Shown: positions 24,461 through 31,322 of the stretch, in pieces
Layout: every line of letters begins with the position of its first letter
Position numbering within the stretch: the stretch's first letter is position 1
Source of the DNA: Escherichia coli
GTDB lineage: Bacteria; Pseudomonadota; Gammaproteobacteria; Enterobacterales; Enterobacteriaceae
Assembly: GCF_009931435.1 (NCBI RefSeq)
Contig: NZ_CP043414.1
Length of the DNA: 64,000 nucleotides
Reading direction: 5' to 3' (one strand)
Translations under genes and position numbers: made by a program
Notes under the pieces: model-generated
Told to the model about the DNA's origin: nothing
Databases searched by the model: none
Seen by the model: only the letters and a program-made list of their open reading frames with translations

Positions 24461-24774
24461 TCTTTCCGCGTCTCATCTTTATCGGTGAGACGCACCCTCA
24501 AAATTCCTCCTTCACTCCATTGTTTTTTCGCTTTACTCCCGTTCATTCAACTTTAGTCTCCATTTTTTGCATTACTGCTATCTGTCAGACCTCCGTTTTT
24601 CTGTTGATAAAACACTCTTTTTGACGTTTTTACAGACTAATTGAGTGTGAATTGTGCAAACGATAAAAGTGTGGGAAAAATTGTTTGACTTATAAGTCTC
24701 AGAAAGTAATATGTGCGCCACGCAGCGACGATGAGCGATAAACAAGTTCTTCGAAGCACTCGTAAGAGGCGTGT

Positions 24775-24867
24775 GGTGAGGTGGCCGAGAGGCTGAAGGC
24801 GCTCCCCTGCTAAGGGAGTATGCGGTCAAAAGCTGCATCCGGGGTTCGAATCCCCGCCTCACCGCCA
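24775..24867 (+). tRNA. serV: tRNA-Ser (anticodon GCU)
   Basis: 93-nt sequence GGTGAGGTGGCCGAGAGGCUGAAGG...CCGCCUCACCGCCA with long variable arm and anticodon loop CCUGCUAAG. Confidence 0.93.
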
Positions 24868-24870
24868 TTT

Positions 24871-24947
24871 GCATCCGTAGCTCAGCTGGATAGAGTACTC
24901 GGCTACGAACCGAGCGGTCGGAGGTTCGAATCCTCCCGGATGCACCA
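24871..24947 (+). tRNA. argV: tRNA-Arg (anticodon ACG)
   Basis: GCATCCGTAGCTCAGCTGGATAGAGTACTCGGCTACGAACCGAGCGGTCGGAGGTTCGAATCCTCCCGGATGCACCA; 3 nt after serV. Confidence 0.93.
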
Positions 24948-25082
24948 TATTCTACGAAATCTTCAGCAATGAAGGTGTCGAAGAGGTGGCGGTACTAACC
25001 GCAAGCACCAGGGAGGATAACGTTGCTTTAGCAACGGCCCGAAGGGCGAGCCGTAAGGCGAGTAATCCTCCCGGATGCACCA
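24948..25082 (+). repeat. Spacer repeat unit ending in a tRNA-Arg 3'-terminal fragment (aatcctcccggatgcacca)
   Basis: About 135-nt unit after argV; its last 19 nt duplicate the T-arm/acceptor 3' end plus CCA of tRNA-Arg without the rest of the tRNA. Confidence 0.6.
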
Positions 25083-25146
25083 TCTCTTACTTGATACGGC
25101 TTTAGTAGCGGTATCAAAAAATCTGCAGTAAAGTAAGTTTCCCGAT

Positions 25147-25223
25147 GCATCCGTAGCTCAGCTGGATAGAGTACTCGGCTACGAACCGAGCGGTCGGAGG
25201 TTCGAATCCTCCCGGATGCACCA
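25147..25223 (+). tRNA. argY: tRNA-Arg (anticodon ACG)
   Basis: Identical 77-nt tRNA-Arg copy; spacing to neighbours (276 and 140 nt) matches the argVYZQ arrangement as I recall it. Confidence 0.9.
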
Positions 25224-25286
25224 TCTCTTACTTGATATGGCTTTAGTAGCGATATCAATATCAGCAGTAAAGTAAGTTCTCCCGAT

Positions 25287-25363
25287 GCATCCGTAGCTCA
25301 GCTGGATAGAGTACTCGGCTACGAACCGAGCGGTCGGAGGTTCGAATCCTCCCGGATGCACCA
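25287..25363 (+). tRNA. argZ: tRNA-Arg (anticodon ACG)
   Basis: Identical 77-nt tRNA-Arg copy. Confidence 0.9.
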
Positions 25364-25498
25364 TATTCTCCGAAATCTTCAGCAATGAAGATATCGAAGA
25401 GGTAGCGGAATTAACCGCAGGCACCAGGAAGGATAACGTTGCTTTAGCAACGGCCCGAAGGGCGAGCCGCAAGGCGAGTAATCCTCCCGGATGCACCA
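25364..25498 (+). repeat. Spacer repeat unit ending in a tRNA-Arg 3'-terminal fragment
   Basis: Near-identical copy of the 24948-25082 unit after argZ. Confidence 0.6.
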
Positions 25499-25561
25499 TC
25501 TCTTATTTGATATGGCTTTAGTAGCGGTATCAATATCAGCAGTAAAGTAATTTCTCCCGAT

Positions 25562-25638
25562 GCATCCGTAGCTCAGCTGGATAGAGTACTCGGCTACGAA
25601 CCGAGCGGTCGGAGGTTCGAATCCTCCCGGATGCACCA
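25562..25638 (+). tRNA. argQ: tRNA-Arg (anticodon ACG)
   Basis: Identical 77-nt tRNA-Arg copy; last gene of the operon. Confidence 0.9.
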
Positions 25639-25771
25639 TATTCTCCGTAATCTTCAGCGATGATGGTATGGAAGAGGCGATGGTAATCACCGTCTGCTCC
25701 AGGGAGGATAACGTTGCGGCAGCAACGGCCCGAAGGGCGAACGCCAGTGAGTCATCCTCCCGGATGCACCA
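25639..25771 (+). repeat. Spacer repeat unit ending in a tRNA-Arg 3'-terminal fragment (diverged copy)
   Basis: Third, more diverged copy after argQ, ending tcatcctcccggatgcacca. Confidence 0.55.
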
Positions 25772-25918
25772 TCTTCTGCAAAAAATCCCCTTCAAAAATA
25801 TTTCATTTCTAAATAACTATTTTATCCATTTCCTGAATATTCTTCTCCTTCGCCATCAGCGACAAAATCAAGCAATTACGCTAAAGTAGCGTCATATTTT
25901 TCGACTTGCGAGAAGACC

Positions 25919-26485
25919 ATGTACGAGCGTTATGCAGGTTTAATTTTTGATATGGATGGCACAATCCTGGATACGGAGCCTACGCACCGTAAAGCGTGGC
26001 GCGAAGTATTAGGGCACTACGGTCTTCAGTACGATGTTCAGGCGATGATTGCGCTTAATGGCTCGCCCACGTGGCGCATTGCTCAGGCGATTATTGAACT
26101 GAATCAGGCCGATCTCGACCCGCATGCGCTGGCGCGTGAAAAAACAGAAGCAGTCAGAAGCATGTTACTCGATAGCGTCGAACCACTCCCCCTTGTTGAA
26201 GTGGTGAAAAGCTGGCACGGACGTCGACCAATGGCTGTAGGAACGGGGAGTGAAAGCGCCATCGCTGAGGCACTGCTAACGCACCTGGGATTACGCCGTT
26301 ATTTTGACGCCGTCGTTGCTGCCGATCACGTCAAACATCATAAACCTGCGCCAGACACATTTTTATTGTGCGCGCAGCGTATGGGCGTGCAACCAACGCA
26401 GTGTGTGGTCTTTGAAGATGCCGATTTCGGTATTCAGGCGGCCCGTGCTGCAGGCATGGACGCTGTGGATGTTCGCTTGCTGTGA
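25919..26485 (+). CDS. yqaB: HAD-superfamily sugar phosphatase (fructose-1-phosphatase)
   Basis: 188-aa ORF with HAD motif I FDMDGTILDTEP. Confidence 0.9.
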   Translation: MYERYAGLIFDMDGTILDTEPTHRKAWREVLGHYGLQYDVQAMIALNGSPTWRIAQAIIELNQADLDPHALAREKTEAVRSMLLDSVEPLPLVEVVKSWHGRRPMAVGTGSESAIAEALLTHLGLRRYFDAVVAADHVKHHKPAPDTFLLCAQRMGVQPTQCVVFEDADFGIQAARAAGMDAVDVRLL

Positions 26486-28547: not shown

Positions 28548-28620
28548 AAAAAGGCCACTCGTGAGTGGCCAAAATTTCATCTCTGAATTCAGGGATGATG
28601 ATAACAAATGCGCGTCTTTC
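28548..28620 (-). ncRNA. micA: MicA (SraD) small regulatory RNA
   Basis: Minus strand reads GAAAGACGCGCATTTGTTATCATCATCCCTGAATTCAGAGATGAAATTTTGGCCACTCACGAGTGGCCTTTTT, the MicA sequence as I recall it, with its terminator hairpin GGCCACTCACGAGTGGCC and T-run; located between gshA and luxS. Confidence 0.85.
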
Positions 28621-29217: not shown

Positions 29218-29247
29218 CCGGGCAGGTGATATCACCGCCCGGTTTTT
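29218..29247 (+). terminator. Rho-independent terminator of luxS
   Basis: ccgggcaggtgat/atcaccgcccgg hairpin followed by TTTTT, 14 nt after the luxS stop; abuts the stop codon of the convergent 370-aa ORF. Confidence 0.6.
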
Positions 29248-29248
29248 A

Positions 29249-30361
29249 TTACCTGTCAGTCACCCGATATTCCACGCTATGTGCTTCATCAGGTTGAGGA
29301 ACTTCCAGCCTTGAGGCCATCCGCATCACGACCGCTTCAGGAACGGCATACTCGCGCCTGGCATTTTGCTGCTTCCATTGCGCCCACGGTACTTCCAGAT
29401 AAACGATTTTTACTCGTGCACCGTAAGCCGTAAACAGACTGATGAGCTGGCTACGCAACTGGCGGGTAATGTTCGTTGCATTCCAGATGAACGGCTTCTT
29501 CTGGCGTAAAAAAACGCGCGCTTCTTCTTTTGCCTGTTGCACAATACGCCCGGTGGCGGTTTTGTCGTCCGGACTGGCATTGATTCGCCGCCGCATATCA
29601 TCAAGGCTGATAACGTTCACTCTCTGGCACTGTTCACTGATAAAGCGATCTTTGCCCATACCCGGTAAACCACACAGCAAAATAACCTCAAAAGATTCAG
29701 CCTCCCAGGGAACAAAATCAGGAGAACTTTGTTCATGGGTCAGGTAATGCCAGCGTGCGGAATCCGAAGCGAATGAACGCACTTTTCCCCAGCATTGTTG
29801 CTCCTGGCAAAATAGCTTGAACAGATCGATGCGTTCCAGCATTGATTGCTGATCATGACAATGGCGACCAAGCAGATCGGCACGAGCAAGCAAAGCGAGC
29901 AGACGCGTGTCGATACGCATTGCAGCCGTGAGCAGCAAACGCTCCGGTTCCGGACGTTCCAGTAACCATAGCGGTAACCCATGCAGACGCACCAGTGCAA
30001 CAATTTGCTCGCGTAGCACGAACGGTGTCGGGATATCGCGCCATAAAATTTGTCGGGCCGTCAATTCACCCCGACGAGCATGACCAGGGGACTGAATACG
30101 TCCGTTTTCCTGCACGGTAGTACTGCGCTTTTCAACGTCATGCAATAACGCCGCCGCCCATAAAATTTCCTGCTGCTGAGCGGGGAGTTGCTGAAACTCA
30201 GCCATCGCAACGAGTGCGTTCAGCACCATTTCAGTATGCACACCAACGTCGCCTTCACCATGATGCTCCGGGTCTTGCGGCGTGTTATGCATATCCTCAA
30301 CCCAGCTAAAACGCTGGCGTAGCGTCGACCAGCGTTTGTCGTCGGTAAGTTGCCAAATCAT
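29249..30361 (-). CDS. HD-domain phosphoesterase fused to P-loop NTPase (polynucleotide-kinase-like); predicted RNA/DNA end-healing enzyme
   Basis: 370-aa ORF. N-terminal HD signature: [16 protein letters not shown] (res 31-46), AALLHDVEK (res 70-78), ARADLLGR (res 159-166). C-terminal Walker A GLPGMGKD (res 231-238) and Walker B-like NVISLDD (res 249-255). Start overlaps the stop of the upstream ligase-like ORF by 4 nt. Confidence 0.65.
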
Positions 30362-31065
30362 GACTGTTCTCCATAAGCGAACTCATGGGCCATCCGCGCC
30401 CGTCGCCAGTGGCGTTTCCAGTGCTCGGTGGTTTTGACATGATTTTTGCGTACATACTTGAAGACGTTATGCGAAAAGTCAGCGACGGAAAACGCATCAC
30501 TATTCCGGCTGACAATGCCTTCCAGCGTACAGGGTTGCCCGGTTTGCGTATCCCAGGGATCGAACGCGCCGCGCGCATTGGTCAGCGCCAGAAAATCACG
30601 TTGCCAGCTTTTTTCATCATTCCCCGGCTGCGGGCCGGAGATTTCGGGAACGCAGGGGAAATCAAACAGAGCGGCGTAAAACTGCACCTCTTCCCAGCTC
30701 AGCCACATATCCTGGCAGCGAACGGCAAACAGATAAAAATCCTGCTCCAGGGCGCGATATTCAATCGAATGAACGGCATAAAGATTTTCACCAAACAACT
30801 CCAGATCGCCGAGATCGTTTTTCAGCGATTGCCAGCGTTGGCGAATTTTATAGGTCCATGCCGATTCCGTTGGCGCGGCATGGGAACGGGCAAACACGCC
30901 GAAGCGATTAAGACAGTTATTTTCGCCGTCGAGTTTTTCAGTATGTACCAACTGCGAAATTGCCTGCATATCTTGCCAGTAACTGGCGTTAATGCGGTCA
31001 TCGCTGGTGGTGCCAGGGGAGAAGGGATAATGCCAGGTTCTCCCGTATTTACGTTGGATAATCAT
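30358..31065 (-). CDS. Rnl2-like ATP-dependent RNA ligase (nucleotidyltransferase domain only)
   Basis: 235-aa ORF with candidate covalent-nucleotidyltransferase motifs in canonical order and spacing: I KLDG (K44), III LFGE (90-93), IV EGIV (182-185), V KYVRK (203-207). First gene of a 2-gene operon. Confidence 0.6.
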
Positions 31066-31291
31066 AATAATCCATTATTTTGTGTGTAATAAATGTACGC
31101 CCGCGTGGGTGCGAGTTATGGGGTTAAAAGAAAAATGTGAGTATCACCCGCGAAAGCGAGGGCGAAGAAAAAAGAGAGTTAACAACCTGAGCGAATGCTC
31201 AGAACCGATTAATGGTGAATGGAAGAGTTTGGGGCGGCGAAAAGATACACCGTTTGAGATGATAAAACAACCGTTTACAGAATGAGCAAAT

Positions 31292-31312
31292 AAAAAGGGA
31301 GCCGCAGCTCCC
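31292..31312 (-). terminator. Rho-independent terminator of emrB
   Basis: gggagc-cgca-gctccc hairpin; on the minus strand it is followed by TTTTT, about 10 nt after the emrB stop. Confidence 0.55.
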
Positions 31313-31322
31313 TTTGACAACC

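Follow-up and report, generated by a model that had tools for sequence, protein, structure and literature searches.

Operons that couple a ligase-like gene to a gene for a fused HD phosphoesterase and P-loop polynucleotide kinase (HD-Pnk) were reportedly first described biochemically in 2017 by Munir and Shuman, to whom the kinase and phosphoesterase activities of the Runella HD-Pnk are also ascribed. In Runella slithyformis, as laid out in PMC6097658, a putative ATP-dependent ligase open reading frame (ORF) lies directly upstream of HD-Pnk, its 3' end overlapping the start of HD-Pnk; the ligase-like protein becomes covalently linked to AMP, and the Shuman laboratory gave this architecture a heal-and-seal reading (PMC6097658). 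Here we describe a pair of similar layout in Escherichia coli, located between luxS and emrB in a 64,000-nucleotide stretch of contig NZ_CP043414.1 (assembly GCF_009931435.1), referred to below as the window. The two genes are:

30358..31065, minus strand: ligase gene, 235 aa; a stand-alone nucleotidyltransferase (NTase) domain of the ATP-dependent RNA ligase superfamily, with adenylylation lysine K44
29249..30361, minus strand: HD-Pnk gene, 370 aa; a fusion of an HD phosphoesterase (N-terminal, residues ~1-210) and a P-loop 5'-OH polynucleotide-kinase-like domain (C-terminal, ~222-370)

The two genes, which are translationally coupled, probably encode a two-enzyme module for healing and sealing broken nucleic-acid ends, most likely those of RNA carrying 2',3'-cyclic-phosphate and 5'-OH termini. 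The coordinates and lengths given for both ORFs in a preliminary description, made from the sequence alone, are exact, and the four nucleotides (ATGA) shared by the ligase stop and the HD-Pnk start can be read directly in the sequence. The novelty it suggested was overstated, since an HD-Pnk plus ligase system has already been described: the operon is of a known kind, and the E. coli pair is a new, uncharacterised member of it, on which our literature search retrieved no publication. What is added here is a tractable E. coli setting, a linkage to rtcB-prfH across phyla and a conserved leader that possibly regulates the operon.

Comparison with known repair systems

Concerning the Runella system, both loci have in common an N-terminal HD domain and a C-terminal P-loop Pnk within one protein of ~370 aa, and a ligase ORF immediately upstream that overlaps the HD-Pnk start. 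Runella carries Tpt1 and methyltransferase-HIT genes further upstream, whereas the E. coli pair has neither and stands alone between emrB and luxS. The window HD-Pnk is 54-55% identical to its Dyadobacter and Emticicia orthologues, from genera which we take to be close relatives of Runella, and this identity, together with the architecture and the operon structure, places it in the Runella-type family. A homologue search seeded with the Emticicia protein, the only one in which Spirosoma and Larkinella members turned up, listed Spirosoma, Larkinella and Emticicia and did not list Runella. Orthology of the E. coli pair to the Runella pair is thus inferred through these relatives.

The T4 repair system, composed of Pnkp with Rnl1 or Rnl2, is more distant. 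Its Pnkp phosphatase is a DxDxT acylphosphatase, whereas here an HD metalloenzyme takes that place and the domain order is reversed; the window ligase lacks the C-terminal domain of T4 Rnl2 and is unrelated in detail to T4 Rnl1; and the host here is a bacterium, with no linked anticodon nuclease. With the bacterial Pnkp/Hen1 and Pnkp1-Rnl-Hen1 systems the pair would share the character of an operon-encoded bacterial heal-and-seal system, and the kinase of Clostridium thermocellum Pnkp (CthPnkp) is the best match of the window kinase domain in both sequence and structure. Nevertheless, the locus has no Hen1 methyltransferase, its HD domain is not a calcineurin-type phosphatase and its ligase is a separate small protein. 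The precedent of a ligase that needs a partner, known from Pnkp/Hen1, may be relevant to the window ligase.

With GTP, RtcB ligates 3'-phosphate or cyclic-phosphate ends to 5'-OH ends, which is the reverse of the end chemistry proposed for ligase/HD-Pnk, and RtcB2-PrfH has been experimentally established as a system that rescues and repairs ribosomes after colicin E3-type toxins have cleaved their 16S decoding centre (PMC9304027, PMC9223846). Both systems show a patchy, conflict-type distribution, and they occupy one operon in Serratia and many Bacteroidota; in E. coli they are found at different loci. The PrfH/RtcB literature that we consulted, including the two papers above, names other accessory genes and not the ligase/HD-Pnk pair.

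The HD-Pnk protein

Pfam assigns the 370-aa protein to AAA_33 (E = 2.2e-31, residues 226-355) and, more weakly, to HD (E = 1.6e-3, residues 41-139). The NCBIfam matches are partial and all far under the equivalog cut-offs; they correspond to the kinase part of bacterial Pnkp, the tRNA(Sec) kinase PSTK, the HD region of the CCA-adding/repair enzyme, and HDIG. In an alignment of 30 sequences the HD part shows twelve invariant residues (H34, E36, G37, H42, H74, D75, E77, K78, H94, H127, D162 and R166), which include all the metal-ligand residues, i.e. H34, H74, D75, H127 and D162. In the P-loop part G234, G236, K237 and D238 are conserved, as are the kinase catalytic candidates D254, R257, R303 and R336, with D254 lining up with the SSD aspartate of CthPnkp. 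An HD domain followed by a P-loop Pnk in ~370 residues, the metal ligands, the P-loop Lys with its Asp/Arg residues and an overlapping ATP-dependent ligase gene upstream are all characteristics of the Runella type.

The Walker A motif reads GLPGMGKD (residues 231-238) and in all 30 homologues has an Asp after the Lys, in the usual place of Ser/Thr; a classical Walker B motif was not identified in HD-Pnk. The preliminary description had proposed an HD signature fused to a Walker A/B NTPase module, and of this the fusion is well founded, given the Pfam and NCBIfam matches and the sequence and structure matches to polynucleotide kinases, as are the conservation of H74/D75 and of the Walker A lysine, while only the A motif of the Walker pair could be retained.

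The AlphaFold2 model of HD-Pnk is confident (pLDDT 92.6, predicted local distance difference test), and the structural neighbours of its kinase half are as follows, with their scores:

C. thermocellum Pnkp kinase: 17.1
PSTK: 16.0
Kti12: 15.2
T4 Pnk: 15.1
Pnkp1: 14.1

RefSeq names the protein only 'AAA family ATPase' or 'ATP-binding protein', an annotation that could be improved.

The ligase protein

The 235-aa protein matches the Pfam model RNA_ligase (PF09414) over its full length with E = 7.6e-28, and no NCBIfam model matches it. In an alignment of 49 homologues, reaching down to ~30% identity, the invariant positions comprise K44, D46 and G47 of motif I (KLDG), E93 of motif III (FGE), E182 and G183 of motif IV (EG) and K203 of motif V (KYVRK), as well as D22, Y103 and P140. 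Motifs I (KxDG), III, IV and V thus follow each other in order on an NTase fold, as is typical of covalent nucleotidyltransferases and of PF09414, and the motifs and K44 lie where they had been read from the sequence alone, K44 being conserved throughout the 49 sequences. The family also has signatures of its own, an N-terminal KYxRTxHxPFSPGxxxDD and a C-terminal HVxTDEHWxxNW.

The AlphaFold2 model is again confident (pLDDT 94.0), and its structural neighbours score as follows:

Naegleria gruberi RNA ligase (NgrRnl), Rnl5: 15.5
T4 Rnl2 adenylyltransferase domain (1s68), Rnl2: 15.4
archaeal ATP-dependent RNA ligase 5d1o, which we class as Rnl3: 13.8
Trypanosoma brucei REL1 (TbREL1), editing ligase: 13.3

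MthRnl is also among the nearest structures, and DNA ligases and capping enzymes rank below the RNA ligases. It should be noted that the similarity to Rnl2 concerns the NTase part only (1s68): the protein ends ~30 residues past motif V, at 235 aa, and has no C-terminal all-helical domain, so it is not an Rnl2 sensu stricto. Similarly, the N-terminal OB-like domain that is the signature of Rnl5 enzymes (NgrRnl and DraRnl of Deinococcus radiodurans) is absent, and only 37 residues precede motif I, containing the KYxRTxHxPFSPGxxxDD signature instead and modelled mostly as coil with two short strands. The predicted structure therefore has an Rnl2/Rnl5-like fold, closest to Rnl5 and Rnl2 and strictly in neither family; the earlier label 'Rnl2-like' was right as to the RNA-ligase NTase fold, with Rnl2 among its nearest neighbours, and not in the strict sense of Rnl2, which the missing C-terminal domain precludes. 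A PDB sequence search with the ligase gave only mollusc hemocyanins, which we treated as spurious because their score was summed from many sub-threshold repeats.

Gene pairing, neighbouring genes and fused relatives

Homologues were collected from one genome per GTDB species, which gave 329 species with an HD-Pnk relative, and 80 loci were fetched, belonging to Enterobacterales and Bacteroidota and hence to two phyla. The ligase ORF is located immediately upstream of HD-Pnk on the same strand in 80 of the 80, typically with an overlap of 4 nt, so that the co-occurrence on which the preliminary description depended holds in every species examined. Between Enterobacterales and Bacteroidota the ligases are 62-66% identical and the HD-Pnk proteins 54-59%, levels that suggest purifying selection on both. 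The distant stand-alone ligase homologues examined (34-42% identity, on short contigs) have no HD-Pnk adjacent to them, and strict pairing is for this reason a property of the fetched HD-Pnk loci.

Of the 80 loci, 24 have an RtcB gene no more than 10 kb away, and in about 20 it immediately precedes the pair on the same strand. Five Serratia species are among these rtcB-linked loci, along with many members of Bacteroides, Phocaeicola, Parabacteroides, Dysgonomonas and Mucilaginibacter. PrfH is encoded in 15 loci, and two contain a Tpt1 homologue. The NCBIfam models agree with these names, with TIGR03073 'release_rtcB' reaching 584 bits in Serratia, and TIGR03072 'release_prfH' 305-306 bits in Serratia and Bacteroides. 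Examples of operons in which the pair forms the distal half, or in which a further gene is inserted, are:

Serratia oryzae, locus L014, 7480-11116: rtcB-prfH-ligase-HD-Pnk, the pair as distal half
Bacteroides cellulosilyticus, locus L047, 7067-11107: rtcB-prfH-ligase-HD-Pnk, the pair as distal half
Dysgonomonas sp. ZJ279, locus L075, 6526-11113: rtcB-prfH-ligase-HD-Pnk with a Tpt1/KptA homologue between prfH and ligase

The Dysgonomonas insertion would echo the Tpt1 linkage of Runella. Taken together, such operons appear to unite the 3'-P/5'-OH and the 3'-OH/5'-P ligation chemistries.

Fused relatives of the window ligase point in the same direction. P0293 (650 aa) contains RNA_ligase, AAA_33/tRNA-ligase-kinase and RNA_ligase domains in this order, and P0294 (1083 aa) contains two RNA_ligase domains, a DSP-PTPase phosphatase of the 'Swiss Army Knife' type (PTP-SAK) and an AAA_33 kinase; judged by their domains, the first would combine a ligase and a Pnk-type kinase in one polypeptide, and the second the full set of ligase, phosphatase and kinase. 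The ligase homologues include many further proteins, of 1000-2357 aa, with a ligase domain.

The pair is also found in phages. An uncultured huge phage of 462 kb (LR756500.1) carries a ligase (25619-26299) and, immediately downstream of it, a full-length HD-Pnk (24519-25559), hits H71 and H83 with 39% and 34% identity. The ligase without HD-Pnk occurs in many jumbo phages, including those of Caulobacter, Agrobacterium and Sinorhizobium, and PHROGs families match both proteins.

Distribution and evolution of the cassette

The cassette is present in 999 of 5426 complete E. coli genomes (~18%), always chromosomal and in single copy, and lies between luxS and emrB in every one of the matches listed for a luxS-to-emrB query. 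An allele 90-95% identical to that of the window accounts for 982 genomes, including ST131, APEC O1:K1:H7, O2:K2:H1, Nissle 1917 and LY180, and the window's own allele type (95-99% identity) for 17. Two Escherichia loci (L006 and L007) have cassette proteins 93-95% identical to those of the window, against 98-99% for LuxS, EmrB, EmrA and GshA. K-12 and O157:H7 have an empty site; in K-12 W3110 luxS and emrB are 63 bp apart with nothing in between, which confirms the adjacency given for K-12 in the preliminary description. An intact member of the family is accordingly carried by about one fifth of complete E. coli genomes, among them ST131, APEC O1:K1:H7 and the probiotic Nissle 1917, with K-12 as a natural null, and this presence/absence polymorphism offers the most tractable genetic setting for HD-Pnk/ligase function.

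Outside Escherichia, the cassette adjoins emrB in Klebsiella spallanzanii, Kosakonia, Enterobacter, Superficieibacter, Phytobacter and an uncultured Enterobacteriaceae genome, and luxS stands on its other side wherever the fetched locus extends that far. Identities to the window proteins across these genera show that divergence in the cassette proteins has kept pace with that in the flanking core proteins:

HD-Pnk: 71-78%
ligase: 80-85%
EmrA: 82-85%
GshA: 82-88%

Flanking direct or inverted repeats were sought as insertion scars, and only short imperfect matches at chance level were found (e.g. D3, 21 nt, 76%); the empty site of K-12 has no intergenic sequence in common with either border of the cassette. 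The GC content of the cassette is indistinguishable from that of its flanks, so that composition gives no sign of a recent transfer. Since the emrB-luxS slot is shared by six other genera and the divergence keeps pace with the flanks, the simplest reading is that of an old Enterobacteriaceae locus that appears to have been vertically inherited and repeatedly lost. The preliminary view of accessory content at a core-gene junction is thus correct in that the cassette is accessory in E. coli and absent from K-12, with the correction that the locus is old and no recent insertion.

Proposed function and alternatives

By homology with the enzymes discussed above, the module would act as follows. A transesterifying ribonuclease (a ribotoxin, colicin, contact-dependent inhibition (CDI) toxin, anticodon nuclease or stress RNase) would produce 2',3'-cyclic-phosphate and 5'-OH ends; the metal site of the HD domain (H34, H74/D75, H127, D162) would hydrolyse the cyclic or 3'-phosphate to a 3'-OH; the P-loop domain of HD-Pnk (K237, D254, R257, R336) would phosphorylate the 5'-OH from a nucleoside triphosphate; and the ligase would adenylylate itself on K44 and transfer the AMP to the 5'-phosphate, with attack by the 3'-OH restoring the phosphodiester. 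All of these enzymatic steps are assigned to the E. coli proteins by homology, and we infer in particular the sealing itself, RNA as the target, and the trigger. The heal-and-seal proposal for broken RNA ends made in the preliminary description is supported by the observed folds, the fusion, the conserved catalytic residues, the strict pairing of the genes, their linkage to other RNA-repair genes and the Runella precedent.

Several points weigh against it. The Runella HD-Pnk reportedly acts on DNA ends too, according to the 2017 work of Munir and Shuman, and Deinococcus HD-Pnk mutants are said, after Schmier and Shuman in 2018, to be sensitive to radiation and mitomycin C. In the kinase, the Walker A Asp replaces the Ser/Thr, and the ligase has no substrate-binding accessory domain, neither the C-domain of Rnl2 nor the N-domain of Rnl5. 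The ORF list shows no neighbouring gene in the window for a nuclease, toxin or regulator, in agreement with the earlier remark that no cognate nuclease is visible nearby. Finally, the Runella ligase-like protein, self-adenylylated as it is, sealed none of the tested 3'-OH/5'-PO4 DNA or RNA substrates (PMC6097658), and sealing is for this reason a putative activity of the family.

DNA end repair is the main rival, although we consider it unlikely. HD-Pnk would here clean 3'-phosphate/5'-OH DNA ends left by oxidative or radiation damage and the ligase would seal the nicks, possibly nicks with a ribonucleotide 3'-OH as for Rnl5 enzymes. The reported DNA-end activity of the Runella enzyme and the reported resistance to radiation and mitomycin C conferred by Deinococcus HD-Pnk agree with this, as does the closest ligase structure, NgrRnl, a nick-sealing enzyme in duplex contexts. 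However, the recurrent accessory neighbours are all concerned with RNA or ribosome repair (RtcB, PrfH, Tpt1) and none with DNA repair, RNA ligases head the structural neighbours of the ligase, DNA ligases ranking lower, and the neighbours of the kinase include the tRNA kinases PSTK and Kti12; by-eye inspection of the conserved upstream region also revealed no LexA box.

With a probability that we put as low as well, the ligase-like protein is not a strand joiner and uses its lysyl-AMP chemistry for another end modification, such as RNA 5'-adenylylation or capping, or, in a variant of this idea, needs a special end such as a 2'-phosphate prepared by HD-Pnk. The failure of the self-adenylylating Runella orthologue to seal any tested substrate (PMC6097658) makes this a genuine possibility, and a bare NTase with family-specific invariant residues outside the classical motifs (H12, S16, D22 and D23 near the N-terminus, H209 and W216 near the C-terminus) and occasional linkage with Tpt1, which removes junction 2'-phosphates, can be counted in its favour. 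Yet the classical ligase motifs are all invariant, including motifs IV and V, which are needed in later steps, homologues of the domain are found fused to a kinase, or to a phosphatase and a kinase, in the manner of heal-and-seal enzymes, and failed sealing in vitro may come from the lack of a partner, in the way that bacterial Pnkp depends on Hen1.

An offensive or abortive-infection element, with the kinase or HD domain as a toxin that modifies or degrades host or phage nucleic acids, is highly improbable: PADLOC returned no family for either protein, which sets the pair outside the anti-phage defence systems modelled there, the kinase is matched best by polynucleotide and tRNA kinases and not by toxins, no antitoxin-like partner is present, and the locus has been inherited vertically at a housekeeping site, with a GC content like that of the host.

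Returning to the repair of broken RNA, a more specific and tentative version, which we hold to be doubtful as a whole, is that ligase/HD-Pnk forms a second arm of RtcB2-PrfH ribosome rescue and repair, handling breaks whose ends RtcB cannot use, with a partner-dependent ligase and a stress-gated leader. The substrates may be breaks in 16S rRNA or tRNA, for example those in which the cyclic phosphate has been opened or removed, and the bare ligase may be active only with HD-Pnk or on a break embedded in a ribosome or tRNA, which would account for the failure of the Runella ligase to seal any model substrate; anti-Shine-Dalgarno pairing in the leader (see below) may keep the operon silent until translation stress. 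Given the linkage to rtcB-prfH across phyla, cleavage of 16S rRNA by colicin E3 or CdiA-CT, and tRNA-cleaving colicins, are the challenges that we suggest.

The conserved leader and other features

The remaining features of the locus are the following:

31066..31293, minus strand: conserved non-coding promoter/leader, 228 nt from the emrB terminator to the ligase ATG; nine Enterobacteriaceae loci aligned
31294..31315, minus strand: emrB intrinsic terminator hairpin, called by the terminator scan and kept in other genera
29218..29242, no strand assigned: GC-rich hairpin CCGGGCGGTGATATCACCTGCCCGG, then TTTTTATTA on the plus strand, between the convergent luxS and HD-Pnk genes; read by eye
28549-28620, minus strand: MicA small RNA (Rfam RF00078, 83.9 bits), between gshA and luxS, ordinary there

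The leader is unusually conserved across genera, and its one-nucleotide indels exclude a coding function. The emrB terminator stands between emrB and this region, in which a candidate sigma-70 promoter, TTGTTT-17-TATCTT, was plausibly assigned by eye; an automatic scan for promoters yielded nothing beyond weak sites that overlap the start codon. Within the nine loci the leader contains an invariant CTTCCATTCAC box, a conserved hairpin at 31184-31206 (GGTTCTGAGC-loop-GCTCAGGTT, with a variable loop) and a second hairpin, CGCCCTCG-CTTT-CGCGGGTG. At the ribosome-binding site of the ligase gene the sequence is AAUGGA, which RNAalifold pairs with UCCAUU; as both sides are invariant there is no covariation to support the pairing, which, if formed, could possibly sequester the ribosome-binding site. 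The z-score of the leader fold is -2.64. Rfam gave no match in the leader, the only one nearby being MicA, and the leader pattern is unique in the window and elsewhere occurs only in the same genomic context. This element is an unexplained lead that may regulate the operon.

A 234-aa ORF at 30385-31089 on the plus strand, antisense to nearly the whole ligase gene, is regarded as a mirror-frame artefact. At the other end of the cassette, the hairpin at 29218..29242, left uncalled by the automatic terminator scan, likely serves as a bidirectional terminator of luxS and HD-Pnk.

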